NCBI GenBank assembly: GCA_903853785.1
Contig: CAINUM010000063.1
Location: 2,974 to 66,973 of the forward strand
DNA from: Candidatus Magasanikiibacteriota bacterium
GTDB lineage: Bacteria; Patescibacteriota; Patescibacteriia; Magasanikbacterales; GWA2-37-8
DNA: 64,000 nucleotides
Direction: 5' to 3'
Below are positions 1 to 46,628 of the stretch, in pieces. The first letter of the stretch is position 1, and every line of letters starts with the position of its first letter. The position numbers were made by a program, and so were the translations under genes. Under the pieces are notes generated by a model. It ran no database searches. It saw nothing but the letters and a program-made list of their open reading frames with translations, and was not told where the DNA came from.

Positions 1-692
1 TCTATTTTGTGATTTAATAGATAATTTCCAATTGATTTTACCACACCACCGATAATTTCAAATTTACCATCTTCTTGTACGGATATGTTAGCTTCACATC
101 GCATGTGACCTTTTTCCATATCAGCGTCACTAACGTCGAGATAGCGTAAAATGGTCTGTAATTCCTGGCAGTAAGTTTTGGCTTCACCGCTACTTTGAAT
201 ATCAGGATCAGAAACTATTTCTACTAATGGTACACCAGCACGATTAAAATCAACCAAAGTATTGCCGTCAGTTCCGTGGGTCAGTTTAGCAGTATCCTCT
301 TCAAGATGAACACGAGTAATACCGATTTTGGTTGTGTCGCGGTGATTTTTGCCTGGTAAAAATTCTAAATCAACCGAACCGTGTTCACCGATAGGTAAAT
401 CAAATTGTGAAATTTGGTAAGCTTTTGGAAGATCAGGATAAAAATAATGTTTACGATCAAATTTAGAATATTCATTTATTTTACAACCCAAAGCCTTGGC
501 AATTTTAGTTGCCCAAGTGATGGCGGTTTTATTTGGGGTTGGAAGTGTACCTGGGTGGGCGAGACATGTTTCGCAAATATTGGTATTCGGCGCGTCGCGA
601 TCTGGATTGTTAGCGCAAGCGCAAAACATTTTGCTCTTGGTTTTGAGCTCCACATGAATTTCTAGGCCGATAATGGGGGTATACTTTTTCAT
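1..692 (-). CDS. gatB: Asp-tRNA(Asn)/Glu-tRNA(Gln) amidotransferase subunit B, 5' part (runs off window start)
   Basis: The reverse-complement translation from the ATG at 692..690 reads MKKYTPIIGLEIHVELKTKSKMFCAC...HYFYPDLPKAYQISQ, the GatB N-terminal signature. No stop occurs before the window edge. Confidence 0.8.
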   Translation of the reverse strand, partial: MKKYTPIIGLEIHVELKTKSKMFCACANNPDRDAPNTNICETCLAHPGTLPTPNKTAITWATKIAKALGCKINEYSKFDRKHYFYPDLPKAYQISQFDLPIGEHGSVDLEFLPGKNHRDTTKIGITRVHLEEDTAKLTHGTDGNTLVDFNRAGVPLVEIVSDPDIQSSGEAKTYCQELQTILRYLDVSDADMEKGHMRCEANISVQEDGKFEIIGGVVKSIGNYLLNHKI

Positions 693-715
693 GGTTAGCA
701 ACTTGTTAAACGTAA

Positions 716-8559: not shown

Positions 8560-9042
8560 TTAACCCACCGAAAATAGTCGTAAAAAGACCTTTTTAAAAA
8601 GCTTTCCAACTTCACGAACACCATGGCGTACTTGTCTAAAATAAGCTATGTTGAGCAAAAGAAGCAGTACTACCACGACTGCATCATAACTTTGGCGCAA
8701 CCAGTATTCATCTGCTAATCTGACCCACATACCAAATTCATCAAAAGTCAAACCGAGCCCTATTCCATAAATTGCAGTGCAAATTTTGAAAATTTCTGAT
8801 TCAGCTTCGGGGCGACGTAATATTAAATATAGACCGATTAATACTAAAATAAATACCCCGTAAGTAAAATGATGAATGTGTACCCCCCGAACAGTAAGAA
8901 AAAAGTTTGGTAACCATCTTCCAATTACTAAATAAACCATCAATCTAGAAACGACAAAAGTAATAAGAAAATAAAAAATTATCACACCAATTACATGTTG
9001 ATTTTTGTTTGAATCAATTTTCAATTTCCAATCCGCCTCCAT
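8560..9042 (-). CDS. hypothetical membrane protein
   Basis: 160-aa ORF with four or more hydrophobic segments. No motif recognised. Confidence 0.45.
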   Translation of the reverse strand: MEADWKLKIDSNKNQHVIGVIIFYFLITFVVSRLMVYLVIGRWLPNFFLTVRGVHIHHFTYGVFILVLIGLYLILRRPEAESEIFKICTAIYGIGLGLTFDEFGMWVRLADEYWLRQSYDAVVVVLLLLLNIAYFRQVRHGVREVGKLFKKVFLRLFSVG

Positions 9043-9045
9043 ATT

Positions 9046-11100
9046 TTATTTACACTCCTTATTGGAACATTTGATCTCACCTTTGAAAGTTTGGGTAAGT
9101 AGAGAACCACATTTTTCACATTTTTCACCAGTTGGTTTGTCCCAAAGCGCAAAATCACATTTAGGATATTTGTTGCAACCGTAAAATGTTTTTCCACGTT
9201 TGCTACGACGTTCTGCCAAATCTCCCTCAAGACATTTTGGACATTTTACTCCAGTGACTACGTCGATATTTTTTGTTGTTTTGCATTCTGGATAACCGGT
9301 GCAGGCCATAAATTTGCCAAAGCGACCAGTTTTAATAACCATTGGTTTACCACATTTTTCACAAACCTCTTCAGTAGTTTCATCTGGAATTTTTTCTTTT
9401 TGAGGAATTTCTTTGTCTTTAATTTTCAAATTTTCTTTAAAAGGATGATAAAAATCAGCAATCACTGGTTGCCATTGTTTTTCGCCTCTAGCAATCGCGT
9501 CAAAGTTTTCTTCCATCTGGGCAGTAAAAGAAAAATCGACAATATTTGGAAAGTGTTGAACCAATAAATCGTTTACTACAAAAGCAACTTCGCGAGGTTT
9601 GAGGCGTTTTTTATCGTCACGTTCAACGTAGCCACGATCCTCGATAGTAGCGATGGTTGGGGCAAAAGTAGACGGTCTGCCAACACCATATTCTTCAAGA
9701 GCTTTAACCAAGGCTGCATCATTGTAGCGAGCGGGTGGTTCAGTGTGGTGCTGTTCTGTTTTTATTTCTTGGCAGTTTACTTTTTCACCATTTTCCAAAT
9801 TTGGCAAAGCGTTATCTTTGCTTTTTTCTGGATATAATTTTAAGAAACCATCAAAGATTATAGTTTGGCCAGTAGCTCGGAAAATATAATTATTTGTGGA
9901 AGTAATATTTGCACCGGTCGATGCGACATCAGCAGCAGCCATCTGTGTACCCATCGCTCGATTCCAGATTAGCTCATAAAGTTTGAATTGATTTTTTTCC
10001 AAAAATGGTTCAACGATAGCTGGAGTTCGTTTAGCTTCAGTTGGACGAATAGCTTCATGGGCTTCTTGAGCATTTTTACTTTTATTGGTATAGGCACGTG
10101 GTTTTTCAAGGCTATATTTTGCACCAAATTCTTCGTCAATCACGGCTTTGGCATCTTCCAAAAATTTTGTTGATAAATTTACAGCATCCGTACGCATGTA
10201 AGTAATCAAACCATGAGAACCTTGTGAACCAAGTTCCACACCCTCATAAAGTTGTTGTGCTAGGCGCATCGTTTGTTTGGCAGAAAATCCTAAACGATTG
10301 TTGGCGTCCTGTTGTAAACTAGAAGTTGTAAATGGAGGTGGGGGATTTCGTTTGCTATTTTTCTTTTCAACTGCACTAACAGTATAAGAAACACCAACAA
10401 GGTCTGCAAATATTTTATCGGCCGTTTCCTTATTTTTAATATCCAATTTTTCTAATTTTTTTTCAGGTGTAGCCGAAAGTTTGGCTTCAAAATTTATTTT
10501 TTCTTTATTTTCAAAAATACCCTCTACAGACCAGTATTCTTCTGGTTTAAAATCTAAAATCTCTCGTTCGCGTTCGACGGTGAGTCGCATGGCCACACTT
10601 TGTACACGACCAGCAGATAGTCCCTTGGCTACTTTGCGCCATAAAAATGGAGATAGTTCATAGCCTACCAATCTGTCTAAAATACGTCGTGCTTGTTGAG
10701 CGTCAACCATTTTTAGATCCAGTGCTCGGGGGTTGGCAATGGCATGTTCAACAGCAGTTTTGGTAATTTCATGGAAAGCAATACGTTGGGCTTTGGCCGG
10801 ATCTACACCCAATACTTGTGCCAAATGCCAGGAGATCGCTTCTCCCTCACGATCCTCATCGGTAGCGAATAGGATGTCGTCAGTTTTTTTGGCAGCGTCT
10901 TTAAGTTCTTTGATTACTTTGCTTTTGTCACGACTATTGATGTATTGTGGTTCAAAATTATGTTCAATATCAATACCCATCTTACTTTTTGGAAGATCAC
11001 GAACATGTCCAAATGATGATTTGACGACAAAACTTTTCCCTAAGAATTTGGAAATAGTTTTGGCTTTAGCCGGTGACTCTACTATGACAAGTTTTGACAT
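9046..11100 (-). CDS. topA: DNA topoisomerase I
   Basis: MSKLVIVESPAKAKTISKFLG Toprim start is present. The true start is the internal ATG at 11100, not the track start at 11244. C-terminal C4 zinc ribbons include CEKCGKPM...CTGYPEC. Confidence 0.9.
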   Translation of the reverse strand: MSKLVIVESPAKAKTISKFLGKSFVVKSSFGHVRDLPKSKMGIDIEHNFEPQYINSRDKSKVIKELKDAAKKTDDILFATDEDREGEAISWHLAQVLGVDPAKAQRIAFHEITKTAVEHAIANPRALDLKMVDAQQARRILDRLVGYELSPFLWRKVAKGLSAGRVQSVAMRLTVEREREILDFKPEEYWSVEGIFENKEKINFEAKLSATPEKKLEKLDIKNKETADKIFADLVGVSYTVSAVEKKNSKRNPPPPFTTSSLQQDANNRLGFSAKQTMRLAQQLYEGVELGSQGSHGLITYMRTDAVNLSTKFLEDAKAVIDEEFGAKYSLEKPRAYTNKSKNAQEAHEAIRPTEAKRTPAIVEPFLEKNQFKLYELIWNRAMGTQMAAADVASTGANITSTNNYIFRATGQTIIFDGFLKLYPEKSKDNALPNLENGEKVNCQEIKTEQHHTEPPARYNDAALVKALEEYGVGRPSTFAPTIATIEDRGYVERDDKKRLKPREVAFVVNDLLVQHFPNIVDFSFTAQMEENFDAIARGEKQWQPVIADFYHPFKENLKIKDKEIPQKEKIPDETTEEVCEKCGKPMVIKTGRFGKFMACTGYPECKTTKNIDVVTGVKCPKCLEGDLAERRSKRGKTFYGCNKYPKCDFALWDKPTGEKCEKCGSLLTQTFKGEIKCSNKECK

Positions 11101-17205: not shown

Positions 17206-17277
17206 GCACCCATCGTTCAATGGATAGGACATTGGCCTGCGAAGCCGAAAATTTAGGTTCGACTCCTAATGGGTGCA
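17206..17277 (+). tRNA. tRNA-Arg (anticodon read as GCG)
   Basis: Manual fold: acceptor GCACCCA/TGGGTGC, D-stem GTTC/GGAC, anticodon stem TTGGC/GCCGA with loop CTGCGAA (U33, anticodon GCG, A37), T-arm TTAGG-TTCGACT-CCTAA and discriminator A. CCA is not encoded. Confidence 0.8.
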
Positions 17278-17280
17278 CAA

Positions 17281-17312
17281 AAAAACGCTTTTATCAAAAG
17301 GCGTTTTTTATT
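17281..17312 (+). terminator. terminator-like hairpin after tRNA-Arg
   Basis: AAAAACGCTTTT-ATCA-AAAGGCGTTTTTT, an imperfect stem followed by a T-run. Confidence 0.45.
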
Positions 17313-17327
17313 TGTTTATGTTCTGGA

Positions 17328-17356
17328 TTGATTTTTTCAAATATCATTGGTATACT
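17328..17356 (+). promoter_or_regulatory. sigma70-type promoter of GC-rich element A
   Basis: TTGATT-17nt-TATACT. The GC-rich block begins about 8 nt after the predicted +1. Confidence 0.5.
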
Positions 17357-17370
17357 TTTTTTGTTTGATG

Positions 17371-17725
17371 CCTGTTGCAAGAGCACAGGAAATCCAGTCT
17401 ACAACTTGGAGGTTTCGATGAAGTTGATCGCACACGCTGTCCATATTCCATTTTTGTTCTGTCTGCTCGGCGGGGTTCGTCTTTCAGCAGTGATCTGCCC
17501 CCCCATCTCGCTGGTTCCGTCCAGCGACCCGTGGCCGCGAATGCCGCAGAACACCGATCGTCATCGTGGTCGGCGTGAGTTCGTGTCGGCGGTCGCCAAC
17601 GCCCAACGCATCGCTCAGCGCAACTCCAATGGGTGCCGCCGCCGCTAGCCGGCGCTGAACCCTTGTTGGTATCAAACCCCGCTGTGCGTCGACTAATCCA
17701 AAGGAGTAGTCCGGCGCACACATAC
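17371..17725 (+). ncRNA. GC-rich structured-RNA candidate A (unknown family). Contains a possible 77-aa sORF at 17417..17650 preceded by GGAGG
   Basis: About 355 nt at roughly 60% GC in a roughly 35% GC genome. Own promoter and terminator. The 3' hairpin TGCGTCGACTA-ATCCAAAGGAG-TAGTCCGGCGCA (17685..17718) is conserved, with covariation, in element B. Confidence 0.45.
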
Positions 17726-17756
17726 TTTAGACTCAAGTTATTGTCTCTAGAGAAAG

Positions 17757-17792
17757 ATAAAAAATTCCAATTGAATGTTGGAATTTTTTGTT
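17757..17792 (+). terminator. Rho-independent terminator after element A
   Basis: AAAAAATTCCAA-TTGAATG-TTGGAATTTTTTG, a perfect stem plus U-run. Confidence 0.6.
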
Positions 17793-17853
17793 TGCCAAAC
17801 TTTTTATGTATGATATACTTTCATTATTAAACAATGATTTAAATAATTATTTT

Positions 17854-18693
17854 ATGTCTGAAGTATCAAGTGAAGACAAAGCTAAACAAGCGGAATTCAA
17901 AGCACCAACATTCGAAAAAAAAACTTCTTCAAAAGAAGTACAGCTTTTGGATTCAAAATATTTTCAAGCAATGAATCGACTTTATCAATTACAAAATAAA
18001 GTAGGAAAAGAAAGTATTCCCCAAGCGATTTTGGATAATAAAGACTTGAAAGCAGTGGTGGATGAAGTGCTGGCCGACGCCAGATATAATCCTGAAGGCA
18101 AGAAAATAGAGGATGTAGATTTTAGCTTAGTAGATGATAAAAAAACAAACAAATTAGGTGTACTTGGAAAGAATAAACAAGCAAGAACTAGTTGGAATAA
18201 AGATAATCCTTTTTATCGTGCATGGGTTAAAGATGCAAAAGATATTATGCCTGAAGCAGGAGAAGATATTGAGGATGTATTGCCAGACATTTCGGATGTT
18301 GGACCAGTTGAACCAATTATCAGCGAAGACGATAAGCAAACGGTGGCAGAGGCGGATAGTGCAAAAATTATAGATATCAGATCTAGAATAAATGATTTTA
18401 CAAAGTCCGAAAAAGCATTTTTTAATAGTGAACACGATGAGATCGCCCCTGCTTCTACAGCGGAGGAATTGGCTCAAGCTAAAAAGATTTTAGGATCAGA
18501 TCAAGATGATGGAACTTATCGTTCAGGTCAAAGTATTACACCGGGTGGTTCGACAAAGACTTGGCTGGAGAAAGGGTTGTTGGCAATAGGAGCTAAAAAA
18601 TTGGGTGAAGCAATCGCAAGAAGTAATAAAAAAGAGAATCCAATAGCAGAAAAACCAAAGACTGATGATAAAATCGACAAACTCGCAGCCTAG
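17854..18693 (+). CDS. hypothetical acidic low-complexity protein
   Basis: ORF starting MSEVSSEDKAKQ. The track start at 17788 overlaps the upstream terminator, so the ATG at 17854 is preferred. Rich in D/E/K with no motif. Confidence 0.5.
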   Translation: MSEVSSEDKAKQAEFKAPTFEKKTSSKEVQLLDSKYFQAMNRLYQLQNKVGKESIPQAILDNKDLKAVVDEVLADARYNPEGKKIEDVDFSLVDDKKTNKLGVLGKNKQARTSWNKDNPFYRAWVKDAKDIMPEAGEDIEDVLPDISDVGPVEPIISEDDKQTVAEADSAKIIDIRSRINDFTKSEKAFFNSEHDEIAPASTAEELAQAKKILGSDQDDGTYRSGQSITPGGSTKTWLEKGLLAIGAKKLGEAIARSNKKENPIAEKPKTDDKIDKLAA

Positions 18694-18701
18694 AACAAGC
18701 A

Positions 18702-18730
18702 TTGACTTTTTGGCCTAAATATGCTATACT
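18702..18730 (+). promoter_or_regulatory. sigma70-type promoter of GC-rich element B
   Basis: TTGACT-17nt-TATACT immediately followed by the GC-rich block. Nearly identical -10 and spacing to the element A promoter. Confidence 0.5.
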
Positions 18731-32185: not shown

Positions 32186-34309
32186 TTGATTGATATGGAT
32201 TTAGAGAAATCAGTGTCTACATTAAATAAAGTTGGGGTTGCGGTAGTGAAGAAATTGGATAAAATCGGTATTCATACTATCGGCGATTTGTTGTATTATT
32301 TTCCATTTCGTTATGATGATTATCAAGGGGTGGTAGGGATTAAAGAATTACAAGAAGGTAAATTGGTTTCAGTGAAAGCAAAGGTAGAATTAATCGCCAA
32401 TCGAAGAAGCTTTAAAACTCGCAAAATAATAACAGAAGCACTTGTATCTGATGGCAATAATAGCTTACGGATTATTTGGTTTAATCAGCCGTATGTTATA
32501 AAAAATATAAAGCCCGGCGATGTTTTTATATTTACCGGAGTTGTAAAAACGGATATGCTTGGACCACAATTAATCGCTCCAAGTTATGAGCGAGCAATTG
32601 ATGCAGAAAATACTTCACATCCAAAATTAGTACCAATTTATTTTTTAACCGCTGGTTTATCTCAAAAGTACTTACGTTTTCTAATAAAACAAGCTCTTCT
32701 AGAAATTAATAACTTGAAAGATTATATACCTACAGAAGTAATTGAAGAAAATGATTTTTTGCCACTGAATTTAGCTTTACAAGGCATCCATTTTCCAGAA
32801 GATAATAATGATTTAGCAAACAGTCAGAAGCGTTTAAAATTTGATGAAATATTTTTGGTTCAACTTAAATCTGAATTATCTAGAAAAAATCGTCTTCAAC
32901 AAAAAGCACCAAAAATAGTATTTAAAGAAAATGAAATTAAAGAATTGGTTAGTCAGCTGCCATTTGTTTTGACGAAATCACAAAAAATATCTGCTTGGGA
33001 AATTTTGAAAGATTTGGAAAAAACTAGTCCAATGAATAGATTATTATCAGGGGATGTTGGATCTGGTAAAACAGTTGTGGCCGCGATGAGTTTGTATTGT
33101 GCGACACTAAATGGTTTTCAAGCTATCATGATGGCGCCAACGGAAATTCTGGCAAAGCAGCATTTTCAAAGTTTGGAAAGACTGTTGTCAAAATATTTAA
33201 ATATTGCACTGCTTACTAGGTCGCAATTCTTGGGAGTAGTAAATAATCAACCAGTAGAATATAAAAAGAAAGATTTGATCAAAGGTGTTAGTGAGGGTCA
33301 ATTTAGTATAGTAATAGGAACGCATACTTTGTTGTCTGAAAAAATAATATTAAATAAACTGGCTTTAGTTGTTATTGATGAACAACATCGTTTTGGTGTA
33401 AAACAAAGAAAAATGATCAAGGAAAAGATTACTGGTTTAAATGGTTTGATGGCACATTTTTTGAGCATGACTGCCACTCCAATACCACGTTCATTAGCTT
33501 TGACATTGTATGGTGATTTGGATTTATCAACCATAGATGAAATGCCACTTGGGCGTAAAACCATAACAACAAGGTTGGTGGAGTCTCACAATCGTCAAAA
33601 AGCGTATGATTTTATTGCTGAGCAGGTTAAGAAAGGACGACAAGCGTTTGTAGTATGTCCGCTAATTTTGCCCGCAGATAGTTTGCAAAATGATAATAAA
33701 GAGGCTGTATTCTTCGATTTAGCCAACGAAAAGAAAAGTGTAGTGAAAGAGTTTGAATATTTATCAAAAAAAATTTATCCGAATTTTAAAGTTGGATATT
33801 TGCATGGCAAAATGCCTGGCAAAGAAAAAGATGAAATAATGCAAAAATTTAAAAAAGGTGAAATTGATATTTTAATTTCTACTTCTGTAGTAGAGGTTGG
33901 GGTAGACATTCCGAACGCTAGCGTGATGATGGTAGAAGGTGCAGAAAGGTTTGGCTTGGCTCAACTTCATCAATTTCGAGGTCGAGTAGGTCGATCTGAC
34001 CACCAGTCATATTGTCTACTTTTTACTACTAACGAAGCGAGGGGTAATACTTTAGACCGTTTGATTTTTTTTGAAAAAAATAATAGCGGTTTTAAATTAG
34101 CGGAAAAAGATTTAGATACTCGCGGTCCAGGTGAAGTTTATGGTGATTTACAAAGTGGTCAAGAAGTATGGAAATTAGCCGGACCAATGGATAGTGAAAT
34201 AATTAAAATTGCTAGATTTGCCGCAGCAAGAATCGCACCTCTTTTAAATAAATATCCAAATTTAAAGGAAAAAATTAATGATTTTATTTTAGGAAATCAT
34301 TGGGAATAA
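32186..34309 (+). CDS. recG: ATP-dependent DNA helicase RecG
   Basis: Wedge/OB N-terminus, GDVGSGKT Walker A, VIDEQHRFG and helicase C motifs at 707 aa. Confidence 0.9.
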   Translation: MIDMDLEKSVSTLNKVGVAVVKKLDKIGIHTIGDLLYYFPFRYDDYQGVVGIKELQEGKLVSVKAKVELIANRRSFKTRKIITEALVSDGNNSLRIIWFNQPYVIKNIKPGDVFIFTGVVKTDMLGPQLIAPSYERAIDAENTSHPKLVPIYFLTAGLSQKYLRFLIKQALLEINNLKDYIPTEVIEENDFLPLNLALQGIHFPEDNNDLANSQKRLKFDEIFLVQLKSELSRKNRLQQKAPKIVFKENEIKELVSQLPFVLTKSQKISAWEILKDLEKTSPMNRLLSGDVGSGKTVVAAMSLYCATLNGFQAIMMAPTEILAKQHFQSLERLLSKYLNIALLTRSQFLGVVNNQPVEYKKKDLIKGVSEGQFSIVIGTHTLLSEKIILNKLALVVIDEQHRFGVKQRKMIKEKITGLNGLMAHFLSMTATPIPRSLALTLYGDLDLSTIDEMPLGRKTITTRLVESHNRQKAYDFIAEQVKKGRQAFVVCPLILPADSLQNDNKEAVFFDLANEKKSVVKEFEYLSKKIYPNFKVGYLHGKMPGKEKDEIMQKFKKGEIDILISTSVVEVGVDIPNASVMMVEGAERFGLAQLHQFRGRVGRSDHQSYCLLFTTNEARGNTLDRLIFFEKNNSGFKLAEKDLDTRGPGEVYGDLQSGQEVWKLAGPMDSEIIKIARFAAARIAPLLNKYPNLKEKINDFILGNHWE

Positions 34310-34344
34310 ATAAATTCGTATCTTTTTCATCAATTAGCAAAGTG

Positions 34345-34373
34345 TAGACTTGTGCTGTTTTTTTTGTTATAAT
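34345..34373 (+). promoter_or_regulatory. candidate promoter of GC-rich element C
   Basis: TAGACT-17nt-TATAAT. GC-rich sequence begins about 25 nt downstream. Confidence 0.4.
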
Positions 34374-34399
34374 CTGCGCTAAGATCAATAATCACTGGT

Positions 34400-34800
34400 T
34401 TTGCGTAGGGACGCGAGATTCGGTGGTCAACAAGAGGGGACCTGTCTAATGTCCGGCCAAGATAAAATTCTGCATTTCGGCATTCCCATCAAAGTGATGG
34501 GGCACAAGATTCGCACGATTCGTAGCCCGTTTCGCGGTATCGTGCAAGTCGCGGTCATTCGTCCGTCTGCCCGTGGTGGTGAGATAGTTCTTCGCTGGAA
34601 GGACATCAACCAACTCGGCATCAATCGGGCTGACCTCGACAGTGCGTTCCGAAAGCAGATGAAGGGGGCTGTTTCCCTGTTCTAGCCCTATGGGGCGTTC
34701 CTACAATTTAGTAGTTCAATGCAGTCGCGCGAGCGACTTTACTGACCTGATTGCAGGCAGCTGGCTGTGGATTTCTTAATTCGCAGCCTTTGCATTTAAA
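34400..34800 (+). other. GC-rich island C: structured RNA candidate and/or small ORF (78 aa, 34449..34685) with foreign-looking codon usage
   Basis: About 400 nt visibly GC-rich. The ATG at 34449 is preceded by GAGGGGA 8 nt upstream. The ORF uses CTG, CGC, GGC and ATC codons that are atypical for this genome. 3' hairpin is GTCGC-GCGA-GCGAC. Confidence 0.35.
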
Positions 34801-34877
34801 ACACTCTCCAACATATATTACATTGTCAAGAATGACTCTATTGTGATAAAATATAGCCATTAAATAAGAAAATTATT

Positions 34878-37289
34878 ATGTCAGCAGAAAAATCTGGAGC
34901 CGGATTTGGCTATGAATTATCTGAAGGAGCACAAATTGATTTGAGAGATTTAGGACGTGAAGATGCAAAACCTAGAGAAATGTCTCGTGTTTTTATTTAT
35001 CAATCAAAAGGCACAGATCAGGTTAGGGCAGAATTAATGTCAGGTAAATCCCCAGATCAGATTTCTTTTATTAATCTGATTTTTGCCGAAAAAAATGCCG
35101 ACAGTATTAGTCCAAACCAACTTTTACCAGTTGGTGGTTCTAAACGCCCGGGAGATAAAAATTCTTTAGAGGTTGCCAGAAGACGTATGCTTGAGGAAAC
35201 CCATTTACGCCCAATTAAAATCAAAAAATTGGGGAATATGGATTATAAATTAAATGATCCACGAAAAGAAAAGGCGGAGAAAATTGCAGCCACTTATTAT
35301 TTAGCTGAAGTTTTGCCATTGGATGTTGCGTATTCTCTAAATCCTCATGAAGATAAAATCGCAGGTTATCATCAGATAGATTTGACTACATATCGGGATG
35401 AAATTTTACGACAAGGTTTTTATGTTGCCGATGAAAATTCTGATGGAGAGAGAAAATTGCCAATGATAGATAGTTTGAGAGTGAGATATGAAGTTGGACC
35501 GGAAGATATGACTTCAAATATAGTAGAAGATATATCGGCGCAAAACGTCGCCGAACTCCAGGGTAGGTTAGTGGAAGAATTAGAGAATAAAGATTTTCAA
35601 AAAACTCAAAAAATTCTCTATCACCTGATCTCTTTGATGGATATGGATTCAAATGCTGTAGAGTATTGGATTGATGATGTCGATAAAGCAAAGAACATAT
35701 TGGATTCTACTAAAATTTTAAAGGATTTGTTGAGTTATGCGGCAAATGAAGTTTATAATAATGATGTTACGAAAGTTAGTGAACTTTTTTTGGCAGCCTT
35801 TGATCTGAGCAATTTTGAAGACGAAGTTTCTGAAAAACACGCTGGGAGATCTCACAATGAAATGGTTTTGCGTGTCGTTTTTTCATTACTAGAATCCAAA
35901 TTCAATTATGATAATTATATAGAATTAGTAAAAGCGAATCCAGATTTAGCAGATTTTGGTGAGCGATTAGAAAAATTTATCGGTATTCTTTCCAGTGGTG
36001 GAAACGAAACAGGTAATCGAAAAAAATTAGCATTTCAATTAAAAGGGCTTGACCAAATAGATCCGGAACTTGTTGAAGAGGCTTTTTTTGAGGCGTTTTT
36101 CGATTTTATTCCTAAAGATGCAGATGGAAAAAAACAGTTTGAACGAAGAATTAATAAAACCTTAGCAGCTATTGATAGTTTGTTAGATGAAAAGATTGTT
36201 CGTTCAAAATTGGCTCCAGTAGTTCGTGATCAATATAACGAACGCTTGTTAACTCAGGTGGGTGAAATTCGTAATGCCAAAATTTTTACTTTAATGAAAT
36301 ACGCTTTGCCGGGTGTTGGTTTGGAAGAAAAAAGTCGTTTTAAAGCGGATCAAGATGAGGTGAGTGGTCCGCAAGATAAAAATATGTTGCGCCGTGTTGT
36401 TTTTGAGGCAAGACGTAAATTGGCGATGTTATTTTTATTATTAGAATCAGACGAATATTACGATGAAGTAATAGATTTAGGTTCTCAAGAAATTCAAGCA
36501 TTGTGGAATGATATTTTAGATCCACCCAAAGTAAACTGTTTTCTATCTGAAAAACGTAACGAAAATAATGATCTGTTGGATATAGAGTCTAATTTTGTTA
36601 TGCCAGATAATAGCAGTGCTCAAACGATGGCCGTACGTCCGTTTAAAAATAAACTGGGGGATACTACTATGCTGGTTGGTCAATCGCTGCGAAGAAAAGA
36701 GAGAGAATCGGTTTATCGCAAAATGATTGTTCGTGGGTTTGATCGTCCGGAAGATATTAAGGATATTAATGGTCGCTCACTTGTAATTATGCCATCCAAA
36801 GATCAGCCGTTATCTGAGATTTTAAAAAAAGAAGAACGAGTGTTAGAAATTTGTGATCGTGATAATAATGGAAATTATGTTTGTGAGGATAAAAACTTTG
36901 AAGATCACGTGGCAGTATTTGATATAATTGAAAGTTTGCAGAAAGACAAACATGTAAAAATTTTAGAATACAAGCCAACTAATGAACCGGGAACTTCTTT
37001 TGATAGTAATGGAGCTGGCGGTGAAGGTCAGATTAGGTTAGCAAAATTTTATATTCAACATACTGATAATAATGGAAACGTTAGGACTGAAGAGGTTCAA
37101 ATTTTTACCCCTTCTGCAGATGGACGCAGTGGTTTTTATTGGGAAAAGAAAAAGAAAGAGGACGATGAAAGTTATGAATTTGATCGTCTGTTGCGTACCA
37201 AAGGGGTGCATTCATTTGTGGAGATTCTTTATCCAGCAAAAATATTTGGTAAACCAATTCAAAATGTAAATAAGAAAAAACGATCGTAA
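34878..37289 (+). CDS. multidomain protein: N-terminal Nudix hydrolase domain, large alpha-helical middle region, C-terminal RelA/SpoT-type (p)ppGpp-synthetase-like nucleotidyltransferase domain
   Basis: Nudix box GGSKRPGDKNSLEVARRRMLEETHL (GG-x5-G/E-x7-REuxEE) at aa 86-110. At the C-terminus, RRKERESVYRKM matches the Rel G-loop GRPKHIYSIYRKM, DIKDINGRSLVIM matches EIYDLLAVRILV, and EEVQIFT matches EVQIRT. Confidence 0.55.
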   Translation: MSAEKSGAGFGYELSEGAQIDLRDLGREDAKPREMSRVFIYQSKGTDQVRAELMSGKSPDQISFINLIFAEKNADSISPNQLLPVGGSKRPGDKNSLEVARRRMLEETHLRPIKIKKLGNMDYKLNDPRKEKAEKIAATYYLAEVLPLDVAYSLNPHEDKIAGYHQIDLTTYRDEILRQGFYVADENSDGERKLPMIDSLRVRYEVGPEDMTSNIVEDISAQNVAELQGRLVEELENKDFQKTQKILYHLISLMDMDSNAVEYWIDDVDKAKNILDSTKILKDLLSYAANEVYNNDVTKVSELFLAAFDLSNFEDEVSEKHAGRSHNEMVLRVVFSLLESKFNYDNYIELVKANPDLADFGERLEKFIGILSSGGNETGNRKKLAFQLKGLDQIDPELVEEAFFEAFFDFIPKDADGKKQFERRINKTLAAIDSLLDEKIVRSKLAPVVRDQYNERLLTQVGEIRNAKIFTLMKYALPGVGLEEKSRFKADQDEVSGPQDKNMLRRVVFEARRKLAMLFLLLESDEYYDEVIDLGSQEIQALWNDILDPPKVNCFLSEKRNENNDLLDIESNFVMPDNSSAQTMAVRPFKNKLGDTTMLVGQSLRRKERESVYRKMIVRGFDRPEDIKDINGRSLVIMPSKDQPLSEILKKEERVLEICDRDNNGNYVCEDKNFEDHVAVFDIIESLQKDKHVKILEYKPTNEPGTSFDSNGAGGEGQIRLAKFYIQHTDNNGNVRTEEVQIFTPSADGRSGFYWEKKKKEDDESYEFDRLLRTKGVHSFVEILYPAKIFGKPIQNVNKKKRS

Positions 37290-43824: not shown

Positions 43825-45060
43825 TTATAATTTAATTTGGAAAACACCACTTTGAGTAGCATCTGTGAAGAAAACTTTATTTTTTGTTTGATCAAAATTT
43901 ATACTCTTGATATTGTAGTCTCCACCTAAAGAGATGTTGGTTTTTAAGCCAGTTTTTAAATCAATTTTATACATGTCATCTTTGTTGTCGGCGGCTACTT
44001 CAGGGAGAATTCCTGCGCCTTGTGGTAGATCGCGGGGTACTGCACAGAATAGAGTCGTATCACCAGCGAAGGCACATTTGTCAGCCCAAGTATTTAATTT
44101 AAGCATTTGTCGATTGCCACCAATGTTATCTCCATAAGAATCGGTGATCCAAAGTTCAGGCTTAAAATCACTACGTGTACTATAGACGCTATATAAAAGT
44201 TTTTGGCCAGTTGGTGACCACTGTGGTTGAAAGCCCAAACCTTCCACAACTGCAGATTTGAAATTTTCTCCATGTAGTCCTACAAACAACACCTCGCGTC
44301 TTTCACCACCGAGCGGTTCGCCGGTTTGTGAGAAAGCCACAGTCTGACGGTTTGGGGACCAATCAATCTGTACTTTATCTGAATTTTCGCCCATTGGTTC
44401 GACTAGAGTGGTTCCACTACCGTCATCATTTACTGTTACCAGCCAGCGATTTTCTGGAGATAGGCCAATACTTTTTGCGGCGAGTTGGGTGCTATCTGGT
44501 GAAAAAGAAAACTGCTCCCAATGTTTCGGTAAAGTTACCTGTTTTTGTTTTTCAAAATCATAAATTGTTTTGGATCCATCTGGATATTCTAACACAGCTT
44601 TGTCGTTGTTGTTTGCCCAGGTTACATTACTAACATTATAAAATGTTTGATCAGACAAAGATCTCATTTGTCCATCACTGGCTAGTCGATAAAATTTTCC
44701 ATCCCCTTGGTTGTAGTATCGGATGTTACCGGCTTGACTATATCCAGCAAAATCTACTTGATCAGAAGTTAATTTTGTTACTGGTGCAGTTTGATAATAA
44801 CCACCAGGTGTTACCTGTGGAATCGCAGGTAAAGTTGTCTGAACTCCACGACCTAGTTGACCAGTGCCGGTTCCGCCGGTTGCTGCGGTGGAAGTTCTTT
44901 CTCCGGCACCCGGTAATTGTCCGGCCGGTTCAGATGGAACTTCAACAGGCGCCTGCACAATTGTCGCTCTTTTGAAAAGTGCATATAAACCGAAACCTAT
45001 TAGTATAGTTGCAACCAACAGTGCGATTATTAAAAGTATACGTTTTAGTGCAGGGTTCAT
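43825..45060 (-). CDS. membrane-anchored beta-propeller protein (TolB/PD40-like repeats)
   Basis: N-terminal TM. Repeated FSPDSTQLA / WSPNRQTVAF / WSPTGQKLLY PD40-like blades. Confidence 0.6.
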   Translation of the reverse strand: MNPALKRILLIIALLVATILIGFGLYALFKRATIVQAPVEVPSEPAGQLPGAGERTSTAATGGTGTGQLGRGVQTTLPAIPQVTPGGYYQTAPVTKLTSDQVDFAGYSQAGNIRYYNQGDGKFYRLASDGQMRSLSDQTFYNVSNVTWANNNDKAVLEYPDGSKTIYDFEKQKQVTLPKHWEQFSFSPDSTQLAAKSIGLSPENRWLVTVNDDGSGTTLVEPMGENSDKVQIDWSPNRQTVAFSQTGEPLGGERREVLFVGLHGENFKSAVVEGLGFQPQWSPTGQKLLYSVYSTRSDFKPELWITDSYGDNIGGNRQMLKLNTWADKCAFAGDTTLFCAVPRDLPQGAGILPEVAADNKDDMYKIDLKTGLKTNISLGGDYNIKSINFDQTKNKVFFTDATQSGVFQIKL

Positions 45061-45086
45061 ATGTTTATTTTATTTATTTTGAAGTG

Positions 45087-46628
45087 TTAGTTTGTCGGGG
45101 CTGGAGGAGGAGGAGGAGGTGGTGGTGGTGGTGGTGGTGGTGGTGGTGGTGGTGTGTCTGGTTTGGTCTCCGGATTTTTGTTTGCCTGATTATTTTTATG
45201 AGTGTTGTTCGCGTCTTCTTTGCGTTCAGACTTGGAGGCACGAAGGAGGTTGTTTGTGGCCACAATTCTTTTTCTGATTTTAACTTTTTTATTTAATCGA
45301 TCCAATATTTCTGTGATTTTTTCAATCATTGGATTGATGTCGTCTTTAATTATAGTCTTTAATGCTCTAGTTGTTTTACCGGATCCCGTAGCACCTTTAA
45401 AAATAAAAATTGGTAAGGCAATAATAGGTGAAAGAATAATTATGATAATACCTATTATTATTTCTACTAACGGAACACCAACTCTAACAACACTAACAAC
45501 GGCCTCAATATAATCTGCAATAATGATTAAAGCATTAAGCATAGTTTTGACCAAACGAAGAACTGCTAAATTGGCCTCAAGCATCTTTATTTTTGCGTCA
45601 TCTTTGGCATTTGCTTTACCAAATGTAAGTGATGTGATTTTATCGTATAGAGGACGAGCAAAAGTTTTTAAAATTCTCATTGCCCAACTACCTTTCATTC
45701 CATCAACTTTGCTATCGAGAGCGGCTAATTCAGAGTATAGTTTTTTTTGTTCTGCTCGCAACTTCTTTTTTCTACTGCGATCACTTTGCAAACTGTTTGC
45801 AATATTAGCAACCATTTTCCTGGGTGCGTCCTTGATATTTTGTGCACCTTTTTGGATTTTATTAGCCGCCCCATTTGCGATTTTTGAGCCCAAATTTTTG
45901 GCTCTGGATTTGAGACTGGAAGCTTTGTTTGATTGGTCTTTTGGCGCTACTGTTTTAGGGGTTTTGTTCGAGGTTGCGTGTGGGCCAGTTTTGGCTAGCT
46001 CTTCACTGTTTGGTTTAGAAAGTTTCTTATTAGCATTGGGATTCATGTCTGATCGCCAAGGCTTTGTGTCGTTCATCTTGTCTGCATTTGCCGATTTTTT
46101 TTGTGGTTCTTTTGAATCTGGCTGAGTTTCGTTTTTTTTATCAGAAGTTGTTTTTTCTGCGGAAGAATCAGTATTATTAGGTGGTGTATTGCGATTTGGT
46201 GTATTTTCTGAAGCTGGAGGTTGTTGATTTTGTGTTGGATTAGTCTCGGAATTATTTTGTGATTCAGTTGCAGGCGGTTGTGGTTCTGGAGATTTTTCTG
46301 GTGATTGTTGTTCTTTTACTGGAGCGGCGTTCTGATCATTTGGGTTTTTGGACGGCGTGCTGTTGGTCGAAGTTTGATTCTGATTTGATTCATTAAAATT
46401 TTCCGGAGCGGAAGTGCTACTTTGTGGCCTATTTTTAGTTGGTTCGTTTTTTATTTCTGCATTGTCGTTGGCAACCTTTTTAGTGTCGCCCAATTCGAAT
46501 TCTACCGATTTACCTCCACTTCGAATTTTTGCATTTTTAACACCAGACATTCCTGTAATTACAACATCGTCATTGGCAGCTTCAGGGCCACTAGTTGTAG
46601 GTTTTTGTTGTCTGGCGGGCAAAGCCAT
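45087..46628 (-). CDS. low-complexity S/T/N/Q/P-rich single-pass membrane protein ending in a poly-proline tract
   Basis: Long disordered N-terminus, one TM near aa 390-420 and C-terminal P19 encoded by the (GGT)n/(GGA)n repeat. Confidence 0.5.
   Translation of the reverse strand: MALPARQQKPTTSGPEAANDDVVITGMSGVKNAKIRSGGKSVEFELGDTKKVANDNAEIKNEPTKNRPQSSTSAPENFNESNQNQTSTNSTPSKNPNDQNAAPVKEQQSPEKSPEPQPPATESQNNSETNPTQNQQPPASENTPNRNTPPNNTDSSAEKTTSDKKNETQPDSKEPQKKSANADKMNDTKPWRSDMNPNANKKLSKPNSEELAKTGPHATSNKTPKTVAPKDQSNKASSLKSRAKNLGSKIANGAANKIQKGAQNIKDAPRKMVANIANSLQSDRSRKKKLRAEQKKLYSELAALDSKVDGMKGSWAMRILKTFARPLYDKITSLTFGKANAKDDAKIKMLEANLAVLRLVKTMLNALIIIADYIEAVVSVVRVGVPLVEIIIGIIIIILSPIIALPIFIFKGATGSGKTTRALKTIIKDDINPMIEKITEILDRLNKKVKIRKRIVATNNLLRASKSERKEDANNTHKNNQANKNPETKPDTPPPPPPPPPPPPPPPPPAPTN
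45103..45153. repeat. trinucleotide microsatellite (GGA)5(GGT)12 encoding poly-Pro on the minus strand
   Basis: Directly visible at ctggaggaggaggaggaggtggtggtggtggtggtggtggtggtggtggtggtg. Confidence 0.9.

Follow-up and report, generated by a model that had tools for sequence, protein, structure and literature searches.

What does a short GC-rich island in an AT-rich bacterial genome encode, and what keeps it GC-rich? The question is raised by a locus of a Candidatus Magasanikiibacteriota bacterium (GenBank assembly GCA_903853785.1, contig CAINUM010000063.1), of which a stretch of 64,000 nucleotides (nt), here called the window, was analyzed. The window has a GC content of 36.9%; island C (34393..34795, approximately 400 nt), between recG (32186..34309) and a gene for a protein of 803 amino acids (aa; 34878..37289), has at least 50% GC throughout in 120-nt windows, with a peak of 58%. 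Its edges are sharp and coincide with the predicted transcript. A sequence-only reading of this DNA had noticed the block, which is real, and had left it as either a small open reading frame (ORF) with foreign codon usage or a structured RNA. Our analysis indicates that island C is likely to be an autonomous gene for a small protein, monocistronic and confined to a narrow clade of Candidatus Magasanikbacteria (Candidate Phyla Radiation), with a GC content that is actively maintained. All results are at the level of sequence and comparison, and the transcription, termination, and translation of island C are predicted.

Evidence for a Protein-Coding Gene

A homology check on the 78-aa peptide, as proposed in the sequence-only reading, found clear homologs by two routes. 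A full HMMER scan of 1.84 billion representative proteins returned four matches besides the query, three of them genuine (P0002, expectation value [E] = 1.8e-12; P0003, 2e-9; and P0005, 2.8e-4); the fourth (P0004, 345 aa, internally repeated) is a spurious low-complexity match. A profile search of 5.8 billion protein clusters found seven family members, each a singleton or nearly so and without a Pfam domain. Every family member with a readable contig sits directly after the recG stop codon (...GNHWE*), and the contig of P0002 has the same gene order; no genuine homolog was found in any other genomic context among the 1.84 billion representative proteins. The same island, which the earlier reading had suggested looking for in related genomes, is therefore conserved after recG in relatives. 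The closest matches to RecG of the window are in metagenome-assembled genomes (MAGs) of Magasanikbacteria; the protein is 77% identical to that of L001, a Candidatus Magasanikiibacteriota MAG, and 52% identical to those of two other MAGs of the same group.

The DNA-level comparisons cover six sequences, and the AlphaFold alignment seven. Frame +1 is free of stop codons in all six DNA copies, and frames +2 and +3 carry zero to four stops each (+3 is stop-free in L086). Indels are in frame, all alignment gaps being whole codons. In unsaturated pairs, the differences at codon positions 1/2/3 (7/6/17, 19/10/27, and 18/11/23) are fewest at the second position and most numerous at the third, and the ratio of nonsynonymous to synonymous divergence (dN/dS) is 0.33, 0.26, and 0.35; a fourth dN/dS value is 0.33. 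Identity of the coding DNA is 47–62% between the three subclades and 47–88% over all pairs; protein identity is 32–58% where that of the RecG C-terminal region is 77–88%. From the seven-sequence alignment, AlphaFold predicts four beta strands followed by a C-terminal helix (predicted local distance difference test [pLDDT] 79.3; predicted template modeling score [pTM] 0.63).

The antisense frame in codon register (frame −1) is stop-free in five of the six copies, as is expected where GC-rich codon choice avoids TTA, CTA, and TCA. Both the asymmetry between codon positions 1 and 3 and the presence of a promoter, a Shine-Dalgarno site, and a terminator point to the + strand as the coding strand. 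Such an open antisense frame could mislead gene callers. The database version of the protein (94 aa, TTG start at 34401) is probably over-extended, because the orthologs begin at an aligned ATG behind a Shine-Dalgarno site (GGGG, GGAG, or AGAGG, 6–12 nt upstream, in six of six orthologs).

Homologs and coding signature thus support the small-ORF branch of the earlier alternative and leave the RNA branch aside: judged by them, the ORF is a small gene whose predicted product is a folded protein, and not a non-coding RNA.

Composition of the Gene and Its Maintenance

The neighbors of island C in the window are housekeeping genes (secY, recG, radA, tuf, and a tRNA), and the ORF differs from them in composition, as the sequence-only reading had remarked of its codon usage. 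GC at codon positions 1/2/3 is 0.59/0.40/0.63 in the ORF, compared with 0.46/0.31/0.23 in recG, 0.55/0.38/0.28 in tuf, 0.44/0.37/0.30 in secY, and 0.50/0.31/0.24 in the 803-aa gene, so that GC at third positions (GC3) of 0.63 stands against 0.23–0.30. The ORF has no TTA or TTG leucine codon and no AGA or AGG arginine codon.

The same holds in relatives, where GC3 of the C genes is 0.63–0.77, against 0.20–0.36 for the RecG C-terminal fragments on the same contigs; the RecG C-terminal regions (last 183 aa) of these relatives are 72–88% identical. Third codon positions differ at about half of sites between subclades and have therefore largely turned over; pairwise synonymous divergence (dS) reaches 0.5 to above 1, and each lineage still keeps a high GC3. 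Polarized third-position changes number 13 GC-to-AT and 9 AT-to-GC in the triplet L081/L084/L086 (dS 0.26–0.67), and 25 and 18, respectively, by six-taxon parsimony, implying an equilibrium GC3 of 0.66–0.70. If the neutral equilibrium is taken, by assumption, as the GC3 of ordinary genes, the ratio of about 10:1 expected at the genome equilibrium of about 0.25 is rejected (binomial p = 7e-5 for the triplet and 2e-7 for the six taxa). Under that assumption, the near balance of polarized changes rejects a recent transfer without amelioration; the GC-richness is, on these counts, at substitutional equilibrium, with selection or a GC-biased process holding the composition.

Promoter and RNA Elements of the Transcript

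The features of the locus are collected in Table 1. The promoter named in the sequence-only reading, TAGACT-17-TATAAT, was found by the promoter scan, with a TG upstream of its −10 element, and is conserved in six loci: a −35 element (TTGACT), the 17-nt spacing, and TGnTAnAnT (TGnTATAAT-like) recur. The arrangement CCAGCTAA-TTGACTTT-TAGCTGG-TTTTTT is common to L081, L082, L083, L084, and L086. One stretch of 40 bases (34336..34373; equivalents in L081–L086) would serve both to terminate recG and to initiate the small gene. The ATG with an upstream GAGGGGA is also as that reading had it.

Table 1. Positions of predicted elements in the window: island C and its surroundings, then islands A and B
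Feature	Position	Strand	Basis or remark
Terminator hairpin of recG (AGCA...TGCT and T-run)	34336..34365	+	Read from sequence; its loop holds the −35 element of the small gene's promoter
Sigma-70-type promoter, TAGACT-17-TG-T-TATAAT, extended −10	34345..34373	+	Promoter scan, 10/12 matches, TG present
Long hairpin of the 5′ untranslated region (UTR), about 9 nt from the predicted transcript start	34389..34429	+	RNAalifold, six orthologs
Shine-Dalgarno site GAGGGG, 9 nt upstream of ATG	34434..34439	+	Read from sequence
Coding sequence, 78-aa basic orphan protein	34449..34685	+	Homologs, open frame, dN/dS, AlphaFold
Small hairpin CCCUAUGGGG, directly after the stop codon	34686..34695	+	Codon-aware RNAalifold; weak, not recovered from an alignment of the 3′ UTR only
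Single-stranded motif CCUACAA, 3′ UTR	34700..34706	+	Invariant in six orthologs
3′ UTR hairpin AGUCGC-GCGA-GCGACU	34723..34738	+	Six pairs, two with compensatory double changes
19-nt hairpin CUGACCUGAUUGCAGGCAG, 7 base pairs (bp), bulged A, AUUG loop	34742..34760	+	Invariant across orthologs
Intrinsic terminator, 11-bp hairpin (34763..34788) then UUUGCAUUU	34763..34798	+	Terminator scan and covariation
Island A cassette: extended −10, 5′ hairpin, GGAGG, 3′ hairpin with AAGGAG loop, terminator	17381..17760	+	ORF 17418..17648, 76 aa
Island B cassette, same architecture and same 3′ hairpin as A	18726..19122	+	ORF 18788..18997, 69 aa

RNAalifold with six orthologs places compensatory double changes in 8 of the 17 pairs of the 5′ UTR hairpin and in 7 of the 24 pairs of the 3′ UTR. 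The stem GTCGC-GCGA-GCGAC that had been read from the sequence is real and kept with compensatory changes. The same reading had missed a clean terminator ahead of the next gene's promoter; that promoter is present (TTGTCA-18-TAAAAT at 34823..34852), and so is a terminator before it, conserved with compensatory changes in six relatives (double changes in 5 of 11 pairs). The window and each of L081–L087 have a single copy of the 19-nt hairpin, and none of its seven pairs varies; this sequence conservation suggests a candidate recognition site. Four exact matches of the 19-mer to viral contigs were attributed to chance; the two that were inspected fall within a phage gene.

Folding compared with shuffles gave z = −4.9 for the + strand of the island and z = −2.8 for the minus strand. 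The whole transcript folds with z from −3.6 to −4.8 in six of six orthologs, the signal coming mostly from the UTRs. A possible pairing of the 3′ tail (GCAU or GUGU) with the start codon (AUGC) is 4–5 bp long and shows no covariation. The predicted transcript is, by these comparisons, an mRNA with structured, conserved ends.

Covariance models, another of the checks proposed earlier, matched no Rfam family. At the gathering score there are zero matches across the whole window; at E up to 10, 34200..35000 gives four weak matches only (the best, P26, at 20.3 bits against a gathering score of 36), 17280..19150 gives nothing relevant, and seven related loci give only tRNAs. ARAGORN found only a tRNA-Arg and no tmRNA. 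A consensus scan, which cannot exclude such a site, found nothing promoter-like on the minus strand of 34200..35000.

Other GC-Rich Cassettes

The window contains two further GC-rich islands, A and B, at 17.3 and 18.7 kb, and the sequence-only reading considered island C a possible third member of an RNA class formed by them. The common architecture is borne out; the kind is not, A and B encoding proteins. Relatives of the locus (L092–L094) were recovered by a DNA-pattern scan with the hairpin common to A and B. Differences at codon positions 1/2/3 are 16/8/42, 25/17/40, and 24/20/41 for the orthologs of A (L094 and L093), and 19/14/38 for the ortholog of B in L094, whose protein is 66% identical; GC3 of the A and B ORFs, relatives included, is 0.54–0.70. 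A word-index protein search with ORF B gave no match, its ortholog having come from the DNA-pattern scan; a metagenome scan with the 279-aa protein encoded between A and B returned nothing; and alignment of islands A, B, and C revealed no common sequence beyond the A/B hairpin. As far as these comparisons go, islands A and B are conserved small-protein genes and not an RNA class.

The hairpin common to A and B (CGACUAAU...UAGUCCG, at 17690..17722 and 19028..19062) is conserved in L093 and L094, with one compensatory change (ACUA/UAGU to AUUA/UAAU in A of L094). Its loop is always AAGGAG, which resembles a Shine-Dalgarno site inside a 3′ UTR. In L094, A and B lie side by side; the 279-aa gene that stands between them in the window is missing there. 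A tRNA-Arg gene (anticodon GCG, 17206..17278) lies directly upstream of island A in the window, L093, and L094, and all 26 arginine residues of the cassettes are specified by CGN codons, never by AGA or AGG.

Further cassettes are found in relatives. Cassette D (ORF of 97–100 aa) lies between recG and C in L083 (1031..1324) and L084 (200..502); in L001 (7251..7547) D stands alone, fused to a C-type terminator. In layout, L001 resembles a locus from which the C ORF and its invariant hairpin have dropped out. Family D has three members (three clusters across the whole database), and profile–profile comparison detected no relation between it and C; the L001 ORF, tried as an ortholog of the window ORF, showed no similarity by BLASTP and was assigned to family D. 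Cassette E replaces B in L093 (minus strand as fetched, approximately 700..100); it encodes a 133-aa membrane protein with hydrophobic segments (GC3 0.71) and has the same promoter and downstream flank as the B slot, which indicates replacement within a fixed expression slot. Cassette F is found after guaB in L002, a more distant Magasanikiibacteriota MAG (8630..9110; 89-aa ORF, 62% GC, own promoter and terminator). A second stretch of 62% GC in L002 (4180..4760), upstream of recG, looks like a longer minus-strand gene.

All of these cassettes have an extended −10 promoter, a 5′ hairpin, a Shine-Dalgarno site with ATG, an ORF of 67–133 codons rich in arginine, alanine, glycine, and proline, and a structured 3′ UTR ending in a terminator. 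At least six unrelated small genes thus have the same architecture and composition, five by high GC3 and F by the GC content of its island only. Literature searches aimed at such cassettes in these bacteria found no description of them. One other GC-rich region of the window (44771..45249, minus strand, up to 60% GC) was tried as a further cassette and rejected as low-complexity coding sequence (Pro/Gly run). It is ordinary coding sequence of two proteins: the N-terminal part, rich in Gly, Thr, and Pro, of one of 411 aa, and the C-terminus, with about 18 prolines in a row, of another of 513 aa.

Function and Resemblance to Known Systems

Sequence searches of Pfam, NCBIfam, PHROGs, PADLOC, and PDB with the C protein gave no match, and fold searches with its predicted structure gave no significant match. 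The most frequent families among the top Foldseek matches to PDB, none significant, are PC4 and Pur-alpha, single-stranded nucleic-acid binders that have the same order of four strands and a helix and, like the C product, are basic; significant structural superposition with the C protein was not reached. Because of its basic charge, its fold order, and the invariant 3′ hairpin of its transcript, we infer that the product may be a small nucleic-acid-binding protein, which may recognize its own message. Fast protein evolution and cassette turnover suggest a possible accessory role.

Several known systems resemble island C in part. SgrS/SgrT, RNAIII/hld, and SR1/SR1P are dual-function or structured small-protein RNAs; island C likewise would give a transcript of a few hundred nucleotides with a short ORF and conserved, structured non-coding parts, but the ORF fills over half of that transcript, and there is no sequence or Rfam relationship. 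The mRNAs of hok-type type I toxins are about 400 nt long, highly folded, and stable, and encode a short hydrophobic membrane toxin controlled by an antisense RNA. The predicted C transcript is similar in length, strong folding, hairpins at both ends, and possible start/3′-tail pairing; it differs in that its product is a basic, predicted beta-rich protein without a hydrophobic segment and that its 5′–3′ pairing of 4–5 bp lacks covariation. On the opposite strand, the consensus scan, which could have missed one, saw no promoter-like site. Phage morons are independent transcription units inserted between genes, with their own promoter and terminator and atypical GC content (PMC3594210). Like a moron, island C has one small gene, its own promoter and terminator, and GC unlike its neighbors, and in the class to which it belongs presence, absence, and replacement vary between close relatives; unlike a moron, it has chromosomal housekeeping neighbors and no PHROG match, is not in a phage or prophage, and, with GC at equilibrium and inheritance at a fixed chromosomal site, bears no mark of recent transfer.

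The Downstream Gene

The 803-aa gene follows C in the window, L082, L083, and L086/L087; in L081, L084/L085, and L001 the downstream neighbor is a convergent hypothetical gene of about 201 aa, and C is intact in L081 and L084/L085 despite the differing neighbor. Matches of the 803-aa protein in Pfam are below threshold (NUDIX, E = 0.005; HopA1, E = 0.003), and RelA/SpoT gave no match. By eye, its C-terminal part contains DxxGxR and EVQIFT motifs reminiscent of alarmone synthetases.

Proposed Explanation and Alternatives

In the explanation that we consider likely, the recG terminator houses a strong extended −10 promoter, from which an mRNA of about 415 nt would be made. The 5′ hairpin of this mRNA covaries and is followed by a Shine-Dalgarno site, AUG, and an ORF of 78 codons that is under purifying selection; its 3′ UTR contains a further covarying hairpin, the invariant 19-nt hairpin, and an intrinsic terminator. 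GC-richness extends over the whole transcript and all three codon positions; being at apparent equilibrium, it would be actively maintained and no leftover of transfer. The product would be a basic, fast-evolving orphan protein with a predicted fold of four beta strands and a helix. Selection may act on the RNA itself, with terminal hairpins and high GC making the mRNA compact, long-lived, and resistant to nucleases; the invariant 3′ hairpin may be a sequence-specific recognition site, possibly for the encoded basic protein (autoregulation). C would belong to an interchangeable set of GC-rich cassettes, with A, B, and C known from the window and D, E, and F from relatives, that occupy fixed intergenic slots; the variation of cassettes between close relatives is the pattern of accessory, possibly conflict-related, genes.

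Several points weigh against this explanation. Transcription, translation, and mRNA stability are all deduced from sequence. Within the coding sequence, folding exceeds that of codon-shuffled controls by a modest and uneven margin (z from −0.7 to −2.8), and RNAalifold yields little shared structure inside the ORF, so that clear conserved RNA structure is limited to the UTRs and RNA-level selection on the coding part therefore stays a proposal. The polarization of changes comes from six DNA sequences of one small clade, and parsimony becomes imprecise at dS above 1. High GC could also be kept up by GC-biased gene conversion in a slot prone to recombination.

Two alternatives give the RNA the leading part. 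In one, the transcript has two roles, as message for the small protein and as a regulatory or scaffold RNA; the second role might be played, for example, in a ribonucleoprotein that the transcript forms with the encoded protein by way of the invariant 3′ hairpin, or through pairing of CCUACAA with a target. Such a dual-function RNA is consistent with the invariance of CCUACAA and the 19-nt hairpin beside a coding sequence of just 47–62% identity between subclades, with folding along the whole transcript (z −3.6 to −4.8), with the GC kept at synonymous sites, and with the basic protein; we think it unlikely, as no target or partner was identified, no Rfam family matches even at E up to 10, and the invariant elements could be stability or processing signals of an ordinary mRNA. 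Very unlikely is a structured non-coding RNA whose GC-richness leaves a frame open by chance. It would have to account for protein homology that is detectable (E = 1.8e-12 and 2e-9) where the DNA is about 50% identical, for changes that are fewest at second and most numerous at third codon positions with dN/dS of about 0.3, for indels that are all in frame, for a conserved Shine-Dalgarno site and ATG, and for a confident AlphaFold prediction from seven sequences; little conserved structure was found inside the ORF by RNAalifold, and Rfam offers no family. These weigh more than the classical association of GC-rich islands in AT-rich genomes with RNA genes, the strong fold of the + strand (z = −4.9), the covarying UTR hairpins, and the frame −1 that is open in five of six copies, a sign that GC-richness alone opens frames.

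The other alternatives accept a gene and explain its composition or its purpose differently. Quite unlikely, in our estimate, is a neutral origin of the GC-richness as a by-product of GC-biased gene conversion at recombination-prone slots, in place of RNA selection. Cassettes swap between conserved flanks (B versus E; C and D in combinations), implying frequent recombination, the shift covers all three codon positions and the UTRs, and the structure excess inside the coding sequence is modest, all as gene conversion would have it; but the shift is very large (GC3 of about 0.7 against about 0.25), its sharp edges match the transcript, and for the group L081/L084/L086 the trees of the C gene and recG broadly agree. 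The effects of gene conversion that have been described in bacteria fall far short of this shift, a further point against this origin. A recently transferred, unameliorated gene from a donor of mid or high GC, as the sequence-only reading had suggested, is extremely improbable: the locus is the same in seven relatives with RecG C-terminal regions 72–88% identical, GC3 stays at 0.63–0.77 in each lineage although dS reaches 0.5 to above 1, polarized changes are near balance and show no GC-to-AT excess of about 10:1, no homolog occurs in other contexts among the 1.84 billion representative proteins, and the GC-rich stretch coincides with the transcript, whose promoter is AT-rich, of native type, and placed inside the recG terminator. 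Against all this stand a GC content and codon usage unlike those of every neighboring gene, the orphan status of the family, and the variation of cassettes among close relatives. That reading also offered the small protein as a possible regulator or toxin partner of the downstream protein, which it called Nudix-SAS. A role as regulator, toxin, or antitoxin partner of this 803-aa Nudix-like protein is highly improbable: although the genes are adjacent on the same strand in the window, L082, L083, and L086/L087, they have separate promoters with a terminator in between, the convergent gene of about 201 aa takes the neighbor's place in L081, L084/L085, and L001, with C intact in the first two, and PADLOC matched neither protein.

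The explanation of island C as an autonomous small-protein gene with maintained GC can be extended to its class, in a form that is possible but doubtful: Magasanikbacteria would carry a class of compositionally inverted cassettes (GC3 of about 0.55–0.75 against about 0.25), with GC selected at the RNA level, that are exchanged between fixed chromosomal expression slots. If so, the mRNA would be the selected object, for example as a durable message resisting the cell's AU-preferring RNases or RNase toxins, or alternatively as a ribonucleoprotein with its own basic product; most speculatively, message or protein may be adapted to a GC-rich host cell of these episymbionts.

Significance

Orphan genes of small size are no rarity, and a GC content out of line with the genome is usually taken as a sign of recent transfer. 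That reading fails here, where a fixed site and synonymous turnover go together with a GC3 of about 0.7 in a genome of about 0.25. Nor should the status of RNA gene be assumed for GC-rich islands in AT-rich genomes. The analysis makes no discovery of function; what it describes is a stable inversion of composition, common to several unrelated cassettes, that is unusual and testable. If selection on the mRNA is its cause, these genes would offer a clean natural system in which the composition of a message is selected independently of its protein, and they would point to accessory small proteins so far hidden in Candidate Phyla Radiation bacteria, a poorly understood group.

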